Positions 2,436-31,065 of a DNA stretch of 32,000 nt are shown here, in pieces; the first letter of the stretch is position 1; each line of letters starts with the position of its first letter. A program made the translations under genes and the position numbers. The notes under the pieces were generated by a model. It did not search any database. It was not told the DNA's origin and saw only the letters and a list, made by a program, of their open reading frames with translations. The DNA is from Promethearchaeota archaeon (lineage in GTDB: Archaea; Asgardarchaeota; Odinarchaeia; Odinarchaeales; JBHLKK01). Location of the stretch: assembly GCA_048939465.1 (NCBI GenBank), contig JBHLPL010000008.1, forward strand, positions 454 through 32,453, read 5' to 3'.

Positions 2436-4403
2436 ATGATCCCGATACAGAGGGTAGTTTTATACAAACACGGAGTCGGATACTTCGAAAGGCGGGGAAA
2501 GGTCAGAGAAACAGCAGCGTTGAAATTAAGGTTCAAGAAAGCTGAGATGAGTGATGTTTTGAAAAGCCTTTCTGTGATGGATTTGGGCGGTGGAAGGGTT
2601 TCTACCGTATCCTATGAGGCCGCTCCCACCATTTCGAAACTGCTTGAGAATATCGCAGTCAATGTACCTGAAACGAGTTCCTTAACCGAGCTGATAAAGC
2701 AAATCACTGGTATTGAGGTTGAGATTTCTTTCAACGGAGAGAAAACTCAAGGAAGAGTTCTGGGAATCGAGACCACCGTGGAAGTGGAGGATAAGGTTAA
2801 ACGAAATATCGACCACATCGTCCTTTTGAAAGATGATTCAATAATTACTGTGAAGCTTTCAGACATCAAGAATCTAGCTATTATGGATGAGGATGTTAAA
2901 AGAGATCTAGCGTATTTTGCGGACATCATTTCAGACTCAAAGAAAGAGGAGCTTAAGTCCGTTACCATTCTTTTTGAAGGAGAAGGAGAAAGAGATGCTG
3001 TGATATCTTACATGATTGAGGTCCCGGTCTGGAAAACAAGCTATCGATTGATAATCTTTGAAGATCGGACAGTCCTTCAAGGATGGGCTATCGTGGACAA
3101 TATCTTGGATGAAGACTGGGATGGTGTGGGGCTTTCGCTGGTTGCAGGACTGCCGATTTCATTTCGTCACGATCTGTACACTCCCCGGTATGTTGTCCGT
3201 CCTGAGGTAGAAGTTGAAGAAAGACTTGGGGTGGCTCCAGTAGAACTTGAAGAAGGGGCTGAAGCTGCTGAGCGGGCCGAGATGAAGGCATATGCGCTGG
3301 CAGATAGACCAGCTCCCGTGGGGGGTCCCGGCCTAGCTAAGAAGGCCAGAGCTTTCCGCAGTGCCATGGAACCACGAATGGACCGTGCAATTGAGACTGT
3401 TGAAACCATCGCGGAGGCCAAGGAAGCTGGAGAATTCCTGGTGTATAATGTAACTGTGCCTGTTACCGTAAAAAGGAATCAATCTGCTCTTGTTCCCATT
3501 CTGACTAGTGATGTGGATGGAAAGAAAGTTCTTGTGTATCAAGAGCATGCAAGACGCGGCAATCCGATCATGTGTCTTGAACTGACCAACAATTCCGATC
3601 TGACTCTGGAAAGCGGACCGGTTACTGTCTACGATGGAGGTGTTTATTCAGGTGAATGCATGCTACCTTTTATGGCGGAGGGTGAAAAGCGTCTCTTACC
3701 TTATGCTGTTGATCTGGAAACGACGGTGACTCGTGAGGATAGAATGAAGGACGAATCCGTCCACAAGGTCATTGTACGGGGACCGGTTGTTGAGAGTCTA
3801 TATTATAGAGCCCGTGAAGCCAAATACAAAATCAGGAACAAGACCGATGAAAACAAGGAGATAATCGTAGAGCACGAAAAAGAGCATGGATTTGAGCCTG
3901 TTGATATGGAGAAGCCGAGCGAAGAGACTGCAAGCTATTATCGATGGAGAATAGCAGTTGATTCGAAAGAGACAACGGAGTTCGTTGTAAAACTAAGAAG
4001 GCTGATCTCATCAAGTTTGTCCGTTGTCGGAATTACTTCTTCCGTACTTGAATTCTATTTGAGAAACAAATTAATCTCAGAAGAGGAATCTGAATACCTC
4101 GGCAAAATAGTCAAACTCTCTGAAGAGAAAACTGGTATTGAAGCGGAAATAGCTAAGTTAGAAGGTATGCAGAAGAAGATCTTTGAAGATCAGCCGAGAC
4201 TGAGGGATAACCTTAAGGCGTTGGGCAAAACCAGACAGGAGGACGAGCTTAGGACGAAATATGTCACAAAGCTATCTGAACAGGAGGACGCTTTAGAGAA
4301 GCTCAAAAAGCGAAGAGATTCTTTGTCTTCGAAATCTCACAAGTTGCAGTTGGAAATTGATGCGGCAATCAATGAGTTTGCGAAGTCTCGACAAGACCAC
4401 TAG
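2436..4403 (+). CDS. DUF4139 family protein
   Basis: N-terminal RVVLYKHGVGYFERRG, WKTSYRL..QGWAIVDN..DEDW..V.LSLVAG.P motifs and a C-terminal coiled coil. Confidence 0.8.
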   Translation: MIPIQRVVLYKHGVGYFERRGKVRETAALKLRFKKAEMSDVLKSLSVMDLGGGRVSTVSYEAAPTISKLLENIAVNVPETSSLTELIKQITGIEVEISFNGEKTQGRVLGIETTVEVEDKVKRNIDHIVLLKDDSIITVKLSDIKNLAIMDEDVKRDLAYFADIISDSKKEELKSVTILFEGEGERDAVISYMIEVPVWKTSYRLIIFEDRTVLQGWAIVDNILDEDWDGVGLSLVAGLPISFRHDLYTPRYVVRPEVEVEERLGVAPVELEEGAEAAERAEMKAYALADRPAPVGGPGLAKKARAFRSAMEPRMDRAIETVETIAEAKEAGEFLVYNVTVPVTVKRNQSALVPILTSDVDGKKVLVYQEHARRGNPIMCLELTNNSDLTLESGPVTVYDGGVYSGECMLPFMAEGEKRLLPYAVDLETTVTREDRMKDESVHKVIVRGPVVESLYYRAREAKYKIRNKTDENKEIIVEHEKEHGFEPVDMEKPSEETASYYRWRIAVDSKETTEFVVKLRRLISSSLSVVGITSSVLEFYLRNKLISEEESEYLGKIVKLSEEKTGIEAEIAKLEGMQKKIFEDQPRLRDNLKALGKTRQEDELRTKYVTKLSEQEDALEKLKKRRDSLSSKSHKLQLEIDAAINEFAKSRQDH

Positions 4404-5489: not shown

Positions 5490-6716
5490 TCAATCGATTC
5501 TAGGAGGAGCTTCCTTTCTGATTTCAGAAATTAGAAGATTGGAATCTAGGTATATTGTAAACGAGTGATCTTCATGTTTCAGTACCACGGGTACGGGGAA
5601 TTTCTCGGCCTTTTCTATTTTGGATTTATCAATTGAGAATTGTATTCTACTACTGCAGTGCGGGCAGACAACAACCTTCGATATTCTTCTCAGAGGCTCT
5701 GGCTCTTCTTCGGGTTCTATCTTGAATGCAGTTCGTTTCTTATCTATCCAGCTATGTATTGTAACTCTGGCTTCTGCCAAAAAGGACTTGAGATTGCTAA
5801 GCATATTCAGAACTGTAGTCTTGACTCGCTGCTTCTTGATTCCAGTCTCAGACATGAAGAAAAGTGATAGATTGTAACCCGGTTCCGGCTTCTCTAGAAC
5901 CGTGAAGACCCCCTTCTCGCCCAGCTTTCGTGTGAGTTTGTTCAATATGTAAAGGTCAAATTCATCTTTTACAGGAAATGCTAGTGACAAAACTGCGGAG
6001 TTGATGGTTTTTTTGGCGACTCCGTCACTGACTTTGAACTCCTGATATTTCGCATGTTCGCATATTTCGTCACTAAACACACACGGATAGTCTGGTCCGT
6101 GGGTTGGACAGTTGAATGGTTCTAGATTCAATATTATGTCTAGTACTTGATCTACTCCCATGAGCTTAGGAGGTTCCTTAACATCAATTCTGCAGAACTC
6201 AGCGCCTTCCCACATGCTACTGGCGAGTTCAATCTGGTGATTTGGGGCCAGAGCAGTCGTAATCTGATTCGAGGCAGGGATACATACAAAGTTACATAAG
6301 GCCACTTTTGAGAATTGTTTTCCCCTCTCAAACGCAGGGCAGTGTGTGATCTTGAGTGTGAGATTGCCTTCGCCGAACTTCTTTACATCAAACTCAAAGC
6401 CAAGAATTGGCAAACTGTTTTGATAGAATTCTTCTGTGACATCTATTCCTTTTCCGACTATTCGAAGAGTGTTCTTTATCTGAGACATTAACGCACCCAT
6501 CGATTTTTCCCTCTGCTCAGAAAGCAGGGTTGTTGCATCGCCCCCATATTTCTTCACGATCTCAGCGATGGCCTCGGTTTGAATTAGGAAGAGTGCATCA
6601 TGCAAAATCTTAAGCCTCGATTGGATATCCGTTTCGGATACTCCATCCACTATCGGTCTGTCATCCATTTCTATTACCTCTGTCGGTGGGTTTGAATCAT
6701 GTTCAAGCAAATACAC
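5490..6716 (-). CDS. Three-domain protein: V4R/ATC-hydrolase-like domain, ARPC4 (Arp2/3 subunit p20)-like domain, C-terminal CxxC Zn ribbon
   Basis: aa ~30-181 have LKITHCP..C..VC..G.EFCRI. aa ~186-331 contain TINSAVLSLAFPVKDEFD..K..R..VFTVLEKPEPGYNLSLF, matching ARPC4 SINSVRVSIAVKQADEIE..K..R..FFILRRKPVEGYDISFL. aa 351-354 are CPHC. The start may be Met17 (6668). Confidence 0.75.
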   Translation of the reverse strand: MYLLEHDSNPPTEVIEMDDRPIVDGVSETDIQSRLKILHDALFLIQTEAIAEIVKKYGGDATTLLSEQREKSMGALMSQIKNTLRIVGKGIDVTEEFYQNSLPILGFEFDVKKFGEGNLTLKITHCPAFERGKQFSKVALCNFVCIPASNQITTALAPNHQIELASSMWEGAEFCRIDVKEPPKLMGVDQVLDIILNLEPFNCPTHGPDYPCVFSDEICEHAKYQEFKVSDGVAKKTINSAVLSLAFPVKDEFDLYILNKLTRKLGEKGVFTVLEKPEPGYNLSLFFMSETGIKKQRVKTTVLNMLSNLKSFLAEARVTIHSWIDKKRTAFKIEPEEEPEPLRRISKVVVCPHCSSRIQFSIDKSKIEKAEKFPVPVVLKHEDHSFTIYLDSNLLISEIRKEAPPRID

Positions 6717-14109: not shown

Positions 14110-14928
14110 ATGAGTAGAATAGTTCCCTGGACAGACGGGGGTAGAACTTTGAGTGGAAGTAACAATGTGGGAAGTATCGAAAGCGAATTGCAGAAAAGAT
14201 TCGACAGTTTCATAGGTGCACTGGACTCCGTGATACGGAAACTTGAATCGGGTTTGGAGGACCTAACCTCGTCTTCCGATACTAGGTTGAATGAATTCTC
14301 GGGAGTAGTTAATGGTCTAAAAAGCTCATTTTCTGATTTTCTTCAGAAATCTGAAGAACAGATAGCTAAACTGGTTGAAGATTCGGGAAGGATGAGCCGC
14401 GATCTGGAAGGATTGAAGACTGCTGGTTTTGATAAAGTGGTTAAAGAGTTTGAGAATCTACATACCCAGATGGATAACCTAAATACACAGGTTAGTAATG
14501 TTTCATCCCGCATCGAGAATTTCGGAAGGGACATGGGGGGTTTAAGCGAATCGGAAGAAAAGCTTGATAACGTACTTACAACGGTGTCACGGCAAGCAAG
14601 TATGATTGGCACCATAGATGAGAACTTAAACAAAGTGATCCCTGAGATCCGCAAAGATGTTGAGCGGGTCATCGATATGACGGCTGCACTGACAACGGAA
14701 CTCACGGCCCATCTTGACGCTATGAACGCGAAGATTGAGTCTTCTAATAAATCACAGGAATCTCTTGAAAAGAGGATAGGGGAGCTTGAAAGCAGGATAA
14801 ACAACAGACTAGAGAAGATTTCAACGGTCATAGAAAGTAGATTAGATGGATTGCGGAAACAATTCGATGAAGATATGATTAGGTGGACAGAAAACACTGA
14901 AACAAGAGAGAAGTCTCTAAAGAAGTAG
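14110..14928 (+). CDS. Long coiled-coil protein, no TM
   Basis: Continuous heptad pattern over about 240 aa; start uncertain. Confidence 0.7.
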   Translation: MSRIVPWTDGGRTLSGSNNVGSIESELQKRFDSFIGALDSVIRKLESGLEDLTSSSDTRLNEFSGVVNGLKSSFSDFLQKSEEQIAKLVEDSGRMSRDLEGLKTAGFDKVVKEFENLHTQMDNLNTQVSNVSSRIENFGRDMGGLSESEEKLDNVLTTVSRQASMIGTIDENLNKVIPEIRKDVERVIDMTAALTTELTAHLDAMNAKIESSNKSQESLEKRIGELESRINNRLEKISTVIESRLDGLRKQFDEDMIRWTENTETREKSLKK

Positions 14929-29646: not shown

Positions 29647-30753
29647 CTATCCAGGGACTTTTTCCCATTCTTTGATCGTTTCTTGAAGTTCTTTTCTGAG
29701 GTTGGAGTCGAGTTTTTGAGTAGGTGGTCTGTTGACTAGTCGGCGATGGAATGTTCCCATTTCAAAGAGGGCTGGGTGAAATCTGTTCGTTTCTTCGAGC
29801 TGTTTGCGAACGGTGTCAATTGCTTTGGCTATCTCACCAGCAGGTGCATCTTCTTCGACTTTCTTGCTGCATTCTGCTAGCGCTGTGGGATAATCCAGAG
29901 TTTTTGTAGCCACCGGTTCCTCTAATCTGGGAGCTGGGGTTGCCTTAACACCGGCAAGACTCTGGATGCTTGTTTGTATTCCTGCGACATTTTGGGTCAC
30001 CGCCGTCAGGTCGCTTTTCATATCTGTTACTTCATCACGCAGAGCTGTGAGGCTTTCAATGGCAGAAGAGACTCTGTCAAAACTCTCTCTCAGTGTGGAT
30101 ATTATCTCTCCCATGCCGCTAAGCTCATTTGCGGATGATTTCAAATCCGAAATGTCTAATCGTTCCAGCTTTTCTTCAAGACTTGCTATTCTATTGATCA
30201 GCTCACCGGAAGTTTCCAGTCCTTCTCCTTTCGGTAGAGACGACAAGGATTTAACCCCCTCCTCTATGCCCCTAATTCTCTCTTCGAGCGCAGATATCTT
30301 CTCGATTTCTTCGGGTATCTCCTTGAATCTCTCCAGTGATTCTATTAGGTTCTTGATCTCACCTGTACCCGTTCCTCCGGCTTTTGATTCTGCAAGAAGA
30401 GTCTTAATATCAGATATGATCGGGAATAGGTCTTTTACGACCTGAATACCTTCTTTTATTTCTCCGACAGAAGCCGCCAGTTTCTCGTAACTAGCCCCAA
30501 CGTCCTTAACGGATTCCGGAACTATTTCTGTCTCGCTGATTCTTTTTAGCTGTCCTGCTATATCCTCTAGAACTGGCATGATTCCGCCTAGATCCGGGGA
30601 GGAAGCTACATCACCGCCTCCGCTTAATCCGATCTTTTCTGCTAGCTCGTCTATGGTGCTTTTTAGGCTGCCAACTTGCCGGATTATATAACGTCGTCCT
30701 TCGACAACCTCTTCGAGTTTCTTGTTAATATCTTCCAGGACATTCTGTCCCAT
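29647..30753 (-). CDS. Long coiled-coil protein with C-terminal four-helix domain
   Basis: Start at MGQNV (30753) has GGAGG 7 nt upstream and a TTATATAA box further upstream. The ORF-track extension to 30993 looks non-coding. Confidence 0.75.
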   Translation of the reverse strand: MGQNVLEDINKKLEEVVEGRRYIIRQVGSLKSTIDELAEKIGLSGGGDVASSPDLGGIMPVLEDIAGQLKRISETEIVPESVKDVGASYEKLAASVGEIKEGIQVVKDLFPIISDIKTLLAESKAGGTGTGEIKNLIESLERFKEIPEEIEKISALEERIRGIEEGVKSLSSLPKGEGLETSGELINRIASLEEKLERLDISDLKSSANELSGMGEIISTLRESFDRVSSAIESLTALRDEVTDMKSDLTAVTQNVAGIQTSIQSLAGVKATPAPRLEEPVATKTLDYPTALAECSKKVEEDAPAGEIAKAIDTVRKQLEETNRFHPALFEMGTFHRRLVNRPPTQKLDSNLRKELQETIKEWEKVPG

Positions 30754-31065
30754 TCTTAGACCTCCAAGAGCATAAGATGCTCTTATATAATTCTTTACTA
30801 AATACACATTTAACTTTGTCGGAGTGACTCGGGTAAAGCAAAAGTGTAGAAAATGGACTTGAAGCACTGATATTACGATGTGAGCCATGTATTCTTCGCA
30901 GTTTAAGGTGCAGAAACCGTTCTTACTCAGACTCTCGGAACAAGCTCGATCCAGGCAAAAGATCGACTGCGACTCTTCCCGCATTCTGAACAAGATATAG
31001 TTTTAAGGAATAAACGAGTAATTTTGATTAGTGATGTGTGTTGAAATCATTCAGGAGAGACTGAG

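Follow-up and report, generated by a model that had tools for sequence, protein, structure and literature searches.

A single archaeal polypeptide joins an ARPC4-like domain, related to a core subunit of the eukaryotic Arp2/3 complex, to a V4R/ATC-hydrolase-type domain on its N-terminal side and to a small CPxC/HxDH module on its C-terminal side, and we hold this three-domain architecture and the homology of its parts with high confidence. The gene lies in a 32,000-nucleotide stretch of DNA (the window) on contig C137 of an Odinarchaeales genome of 1.96 Mb, which is 91% complete in 152 contigs. An ARPC4 homologue has been listed as an Asgard eukaryotic signature protein with no function given (PMC7444086, PMC12583498, 10.64898/2026.10.28.762692), and it is among the least understood of these proteins. 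The fused protein is the only ARPC4-like gene in the source genome; such a lineage, its one ARPC4-like copy fixed to a sensor-type domain and a zinc module, gives a natural way into the role of this fold without the rest of Arp2/3, and the fusion reveals the inputs and partners that evolution coupled to it. As the reading made from the sequence alone (the sequence-only reading) had supposed, the fusion appears to be undescribed: we found no account of it in the literature on Asgard ARPC4/Arp2 or V4R, and the orthologue in Candidatus Odinarchaeum yellowstonii LCB_4 (WEU40407.1) is annotated as 'hypothetical protein OdinLCB4_000280'.

The longest frame spans 5490-6716 on the reverse strand, with 408 codons from GTG 6716, and residues are numbered throughout from that codon, as in the sequence-only reading. 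The open reading frame is real, and it contains every motif that had been quoted from it: C126, C141, C145 and C175; KKTINS...VKDEFD; PEPGYNLSLFF; and CPHC...FPVPVV...HEDH...IYLDSN. The true start is probably the downstream ATG at 6668-6666, which gives a coding sequence at 5490..6668 (-) of 392 amino acids plus the stop codon. Codons 1-16 are unconstrained (dN/dS of 0.19-1.3, versus 0.02-0.06 further downstream, among same-genus orthologues), a Shine-Dalgarno-like GAGGT read from the sequence (6676..6680 (-)) lies 7 nt 5' of ATG 6668, and the 90% cluster of the protein includes 392-aa members; we therefore placed the start at 6668. GTG 6716 is not kept in one same-genus genome (G001), and residues 1-24 have pLDDT values below 50 in the full-length AF2 model, the mean for which is 80.7.

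Full-length orthologues with the same uninterrupted frame were found in all seven genomes of the order, including that of LCB_4, a member of the sister family with a closed chromosome of 1,418,269 bp. Identity to the orthologues is 82-83% in both other genomes of the same genus and 43-45% in all four genomes of the sister family, and the two families have neighbouring genes in common: an ABC ATPase and an FtsX-like permease, transcribed divergently, and a convergent MetE-like gene. Among same-genus orthologues, dN/dS is 0.033 for the whole gene and lies between 0.02 and 0.06 in the two flanking domains; in the ARPC4-like domain dS is saturated, with a dN of only 0.07-0.08. The seven fused ARPC4-like domains formed one group with 99/98 support in a maximum-likelihood tree of 30 domains, which fits a single fusion event. 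Together, these data show one origin of the fusion, a conserved genomic position and strong purifying selection on each of its three parts. The draft state of the source assembly might have suggested an assembly or gene-calling artefact, but the same unbroken frame in seven genomes, one of them a closed 1.42-Mb chromosome, together with conserved gene order and purifying selection across the domain junctions, refutes that explanation and leaves it virtually no chance of being right.

A profile survey placed this architecture in a wider context. An ARPC4-like gene was present in 93 of 301 Asgard genomes, nearly always as one copy, and in 15 of the 30 Asgard families sampled, a spread wider than the statement that the homologue occurs in 'some Heimdallarchaeota' (PMC7444086). 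The frames bearing it are 150-215 aa long except in this order (383-436 aa) and in one other family (370-380 aa; G017/G027/G037, P0021), where the tail is different: a long, disordered low-complexity linker leads into a small helical C-terminal domain that Pfam does not recognise. Fusion of an ARPC4-like domain to a V4R-like domain and a zinc module is found throughout this order and, among the 301 Asgard genomes, nowhere else, so the joined frame that the sequence-only reading had picked out is a feature of the order and not a chimera of one assembly. Each of the three domain families also occurs as stand-alone proteins in other Asgard lineages. The stand-alone families of the flanking domains are commonest where no ARPC4-like gene was found, and in other genomes their genes are not adjacent to ARPC4-like genes; from this we conclude that the fusion is a lineage-specific invention and not a frozen operon. 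Stand-alone relatives of both flanking domains clearly work without an ARPC4-like gene.

All three domains score below the curated Pfam cut-offs when the protein is searched as a single sequence, and such searches against PDB sequences and NCBIfam gave no match. The central domain (aa 184-335; 5712..6167 (-)), delimited with a family profile, Foldseek, VIA-align and the ESM Atlas, matches Pfam ARPC4 (PF05856) with E 0.005 and 16.9 bits, against a cut-off of 22.2. An exhaustive HMMER search nevertheless returned about 17 stand-alone proteins, 144-191 aa in length, whose matches cover precisely these residues (E 1e-22 to 1e-4), and 14 of the 21 members of the resulting family alignment match Pfam ARPC4, the best with E 3.5e-12. 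The family profile matched the solved ARPC4 chains 3dwl_F, 1k8k_F and 9dlx_F with E 7e-13 to 1e-12 over ARPC4 residues 57-166, and ARPC2 was a far weaker second match among solved chains. Sequence comparison thus establishes homology to ARPC4 via the family; it does not establish strict PF05856 membership of the single sequence.

The predicted structure leads to the same assignment. In the full-length AF2 model the domain has a pLDDT of about 90 and is closed by a long C-terminal helix (aa 295-330). Its nine best Foldseek matches in the PDB are ARPC4 chains (E 1.5e-6 to 3.2e-5; TM by target 0.63-0.69). VIA-align, an independent all-against-all aligner, superposed model residues 185-334 on residues 9-167 of 1k8k_F with Z 14.5 and an rmsd of 3.2 A over 148 aligned residues, with the next match at Z 8.4, and an ESM Atlas shape search returned an ARPC4 cluster for residues 186-332. 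The model therefore has the ARPC4 fold, an alpha/beta domain followed by a long C-terminal helix. The claim of an ARPC4-like region is upheld by profile and structure alike, and the blocks aligned by eye in the sequence-only reading agree with the HMMER alignment.

Compared with eukaryotic ARPC4 (p20-Arc), the domain has the same fold and long C-terminal helix over 148 of 167 residues and the INS...D and P.EGY.(I/L)S.F blocks in common; by contrast, it scores below the Pfam cut-off as a single sequence, sits between two extra domains and carries a Cys-rich segment near its N-terminus. This segment (aa 203-221; 6054..6110 (-)), defined from the family alignment, has the consensus CP...PCVxCxxC, with C203, C212 and C219 invariant in the family and H206 and H221 close by; S215 of this genus is a fourth Cys in most members. 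To our knowledge, eukaryotic ARPC4 does not have the Cys cluster seen in the archaeal family. The stand-alone Asgard ARPC4-like proteins (about 150-215 aa) are homologous to the fused domain (E 1e-10 to 1e-22, 27-36% identity) and possess the same Cys cluster, again nearly always in one copy per genome, but lack the flanking domains.

The N-terminal domain (aa 28-183; 6168..6635 (-)) has a V4R/Bet3/H-NOX fold and belongs, through its relatives, to the ATC_hydrolase family (PF14196). As a single sequence it reaches only E 0.012-0.04 and 15-17 bits against the PF14196 cut-off of 28.1. A genome search uncovered stand-alone homologues of 158-200 aa in other Asgard families, and these pass the Pfam ATC_hydrolase cut-off with up to 58.9 bits (E 1.3e-15) and make weaker contact with MetOD1 and DUF6125; membership in PF14196 is accordingly proposed by transitivity through these sequences. 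The AF2 model of the domain (pLDDT 85.7) has its best AlphaFold DB matches in entries named ATC hydrolase or 4-vinyl reductase (4VR), with E 5.7e-8 and TM 0.74-0.75. Its best PDB matches are TRAPPC3/Bet3 (E 1.8e-4, TM 0.64), followed by the phenol-sensing domains of PoxR, DmpR and MopR and by H-NOX, and its profile found nothing significant among PDB sequences. In a 30-sequence alignment, G106, C126, C141 and C175 are invariant. Of the four-Cys pattern on which the V4R/ATC-hydrolase assignment was first based, three positions are thus fixed and C145 is only mostly conserved; the assignment itself is borne out by the stand-alone homologues, the fold matches and the Cys cluster. A 317-aa DUF7948 protein on a 1.3-kb contig (P0004), the last 59 residues of which are about 70% identical to aa 57-115, probably derives from a truncated or chimeric short contig.

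In MopR and PoxR, the Cys cluster binds a zinc. Among the fold matches of the N-terminal domain, one entry carries the name SufR, which would leave an Fe-S cluster as an alternative to Zn. V4R, ATC hydrolase and MetOD1 share three clustered, conserved Cys and are related to one another and to HNOB (PMC5847659). The Odinarchaeal domain has the same fold and conserved Cys cluster as the ATC_hydrolase/V4R/MetOD1/DUF6125 domains and the sensing domains of PoxR, DmpR and MopR (PMC5847659); it differs in being joined to an ARPC4-like domain, whereas the known ones stand alone or are joined to AAA+/HTH or receiver domains.

The C-terminal module (aa 344-402; 5511..5687 (-)) is a small beta module with the pattern CPxC...FPVP...HxDH...YLDS, modelled by AF2 as five strands with pLDDT 83-93. 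C351, C354, P374, H381 and D391 are invariant in the module alignment and H384 is mostly conserved; C351, C354, H381 and H384 form a probable zinc site of the zinc-ribbon type, as predicted from sequence. The conserved CPxC...HxDH motif is what backs the zinc-binding module proposed in the sequence-only reading. Pfam zinc-ribbon families gave sub-threshold matches alone. ESM Atlas matches were confined to archaeal hypothetical proteins from Thorarchaeota and Promethearchaeota. By profile search, 78 of 121 Asgard genomes encode the module, frequently more than once. Its stand-alone homologues measure 65-100 aa, and in ORFs of 150-750 aa it occupies an end of the frame. It is a multi-copy module restricted to Asgard archaea and occurs in a wide range of domain combinations.

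Several further copies were noted. In the source genome, a second copy on contig C34 heads a 347-aa protein (L139:1068-2108 (+)) with weak helix-turn-helix matches in Pfam, far below cut-off, and a third, weaker copy occupies the next frame, of 97 aa (L139:2202-2492 (+)). In other genomes the module heads coiled-coil proteins of about 726 aa, and the larger module-bearing proteins contain no confident Pfam domain. One genome has a 65-aa stand-alone module that starts 11 nt after a same-strand Ras/Arf-family small GTPase gene (L108:3421-4198), and a PRPP synthase gene always precedes the module gene in another Asgard family; across the module gene neighbourhoods there was no consistent functional partner.

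The cytoskeletal complement of the source genome bears on what an ARPC4-like protein could do there. It has one actin-family gene, which is eukaryote-like (445 bits, Pfam Actin), and a gelsolin-domain gene above cut-off. Eukaryotic ARPC4 is a core Arp2/3 subunit; the archaeal genome, by comparison, is without the ARPC2 partner or other Arp2/3 subunits. In Pfam searches of this 91% complete genome, none of ARPC2, ARPC3 and ARPC5 was above cut-off: ARPC3 (PF04062) had no match, and ARPC5 (PF04699) reached E 0.087, below cut-off. An ARPC2 candidate (PF04045, P34-Arc; E 0.2) at L003:1105-2334 (-) on contig C116 was rejected as spurious, as it runs antisense to a gene for a 409-aa Orc1/Cdc6-like AAA+ protein. 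There are no Arp2/Arp3 paralogues, the actin gene being the single actin-family match. With one actin, no ARPC2, ARPC3 or ARPC5 and no extra actin-related proteins, an Arp2/3-type branching machine is unlikely, and we regard true filament branching as highly improbable. No ARPC4-like gene turned up in either of the two largest Asgard families of the survey, both of them actin-bearing (0 of 76 and 0 of 68 genomes), which indicates that actin function there is independent of them.

The sequence-only reading had described the protein as a ligand-responsive actin-binding or branching module, a reading drawn solely from homology, in which ligand binding by the N-terminal domain is proposed only by analogy with its family. 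The explanation that we favour, tentatively and with a chance of being right as a whole that falls a little short of even, is a regulated adaptor, in which an ARPC4-like scaffold carries a metal-bearing V4R-like input domain. By analogy with ARPC4 in Arp2/3, the ARPC4-like domain would act as a protein scaffold, a role that its homology makes likely; it would probably use its long C-terminal helix for pairing and would have actin or some other molecule as its binding partner. Of the candidates in this genome, the lone lokiactin-type actin, or the filament that it forms, would be the likeliest. The V4R-like domain would coordinate Zn or Fe-S as its metal, perhaps together with a small hydrophobic ligand, and would gate the scaffold on a redox, metal or metabolite signal. 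Consistent with the sensor analogy, it superposes on H-NOX and on the domains by which PoxR, DmpR and MopR sense phenol. The zinc module may add a second contact, with a protein or a nucleic acid.

These parts differ in how probable they are. At least two of the three Cys/His clusters quite probably bind metal, and a direct connection to actin is possible but on balance doubtful. It is improbable that the protein is a one-polypeptide, signal-gated actin regulator, in which a V4R-type domain that senses a metal or ligand would switch an ARPC4-like part binding actin filaments or protomers. If it were so, the protein would foreshadow, in a prokaryote, the regulated Arp2/3-type control of actin and would provide the first function for Asgard ARPC4-like proteins. 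If instead the actin link fails, it would follow that only on the stem leading to eukaryotes did the ARPC2/ARPC4 fold acquire its role with actin.

The main rival to the regulated adaptor, and one of similar weight although doubtful when taken by itself, takes the ARPC4-like fold for a general-purpose dimerisation or adaptor module that plays no part in actin biology in archaea, and the protein for a sensor or regulator of some other target, for example a nucleic acid or another protein reached through the zinc module. The promiscuity of that module, which heads both the 347-aa protein with its weak helix-turn-helix matches and the 726-aa proteins, is consistent with this, as is the patchy occurrence of ARPC4-like genes across actin-bearing Asgard lineages; V4R-type domains are, moreover, typical sensors of transcription regulators such as PoxR, DmpR and MopR, and the SufR-named fold match points in the same direction. 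However, Arp2/3 subunits are the sole characterised relatives of the central domain, Pfam detected no DNA-binding domain in the protein, and the helix-turn-helix matches of the 347-aa paralogue are far below cut-off.

It is distinctly unlikely that the N-terminal domain is instead an ATC-hydrolase-type enzyme, catalysing C-S bond hydrolysis or related sulfur chemistry, with the rest of the protein serving oligomerisation or localisation. L-ATC hydrolase gave the family its name, and an enzymatic role has been raised for related domains (PMC5847659). The MetE-like gene, which encodes a methionine-synthase domain and is the conserved convergent neighbour in both families, gives a weak hint of the same kind, but its convergent orientation means that it is not co-transcribed with the fusion gene. 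The similarity to PF14196 is itself weak (16.9 bits), and the conserved residues are those of a Cys cluster that is common to non-enzymatic V4R sensor domains.

Still less probable, and very unlikely in our estimate, is a trafficking-subunit role of the Bet3/TRAPPC3 type for the N-terminal domain, which would couple a TRAPP-like function to an ARPC4-like one: TRAPPC3/Bet3 chains, including the Thorarchaeota TRAPPC3 7yh3_A, are the best solved-structure matches of this domain, but the likeness is at the level of the fold (TM about 0.64), with a different sequence family and no TRAPP context evident, whereas both the sequence family and the better-scoring predicted-structure matches are prokaryotic ATC_hydrolase/4VR proteins and the Cys cluster is a V4R/ATC-hydrolase feature (PMC5847659).

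The surroundings of ARPC4-like genes yielded some further observations. The conserved neighbours of the fusion gene give no cytoskeletal hint. Elsewhere in the window, two coiled-coil-rich proteins (14110-14928 (+) and 29647-30993 (-)) have numerous weak matches to eukaryotic coiled-coil families, none above cut-off, and Pfam gave no match at E 0.001 for the 655-aa protein encoded at 2436-4403. The stand-alone ARPC4-like genes of two other Asgard families are convergent to the gene for a conserved protein of about 400 aa (L073:2021-3220 (-), also L061, L063 and L065-L069), which combines an IFT52-type GIFT domain (PF23355, E 8.7e-16) with a coiled-coil tail.
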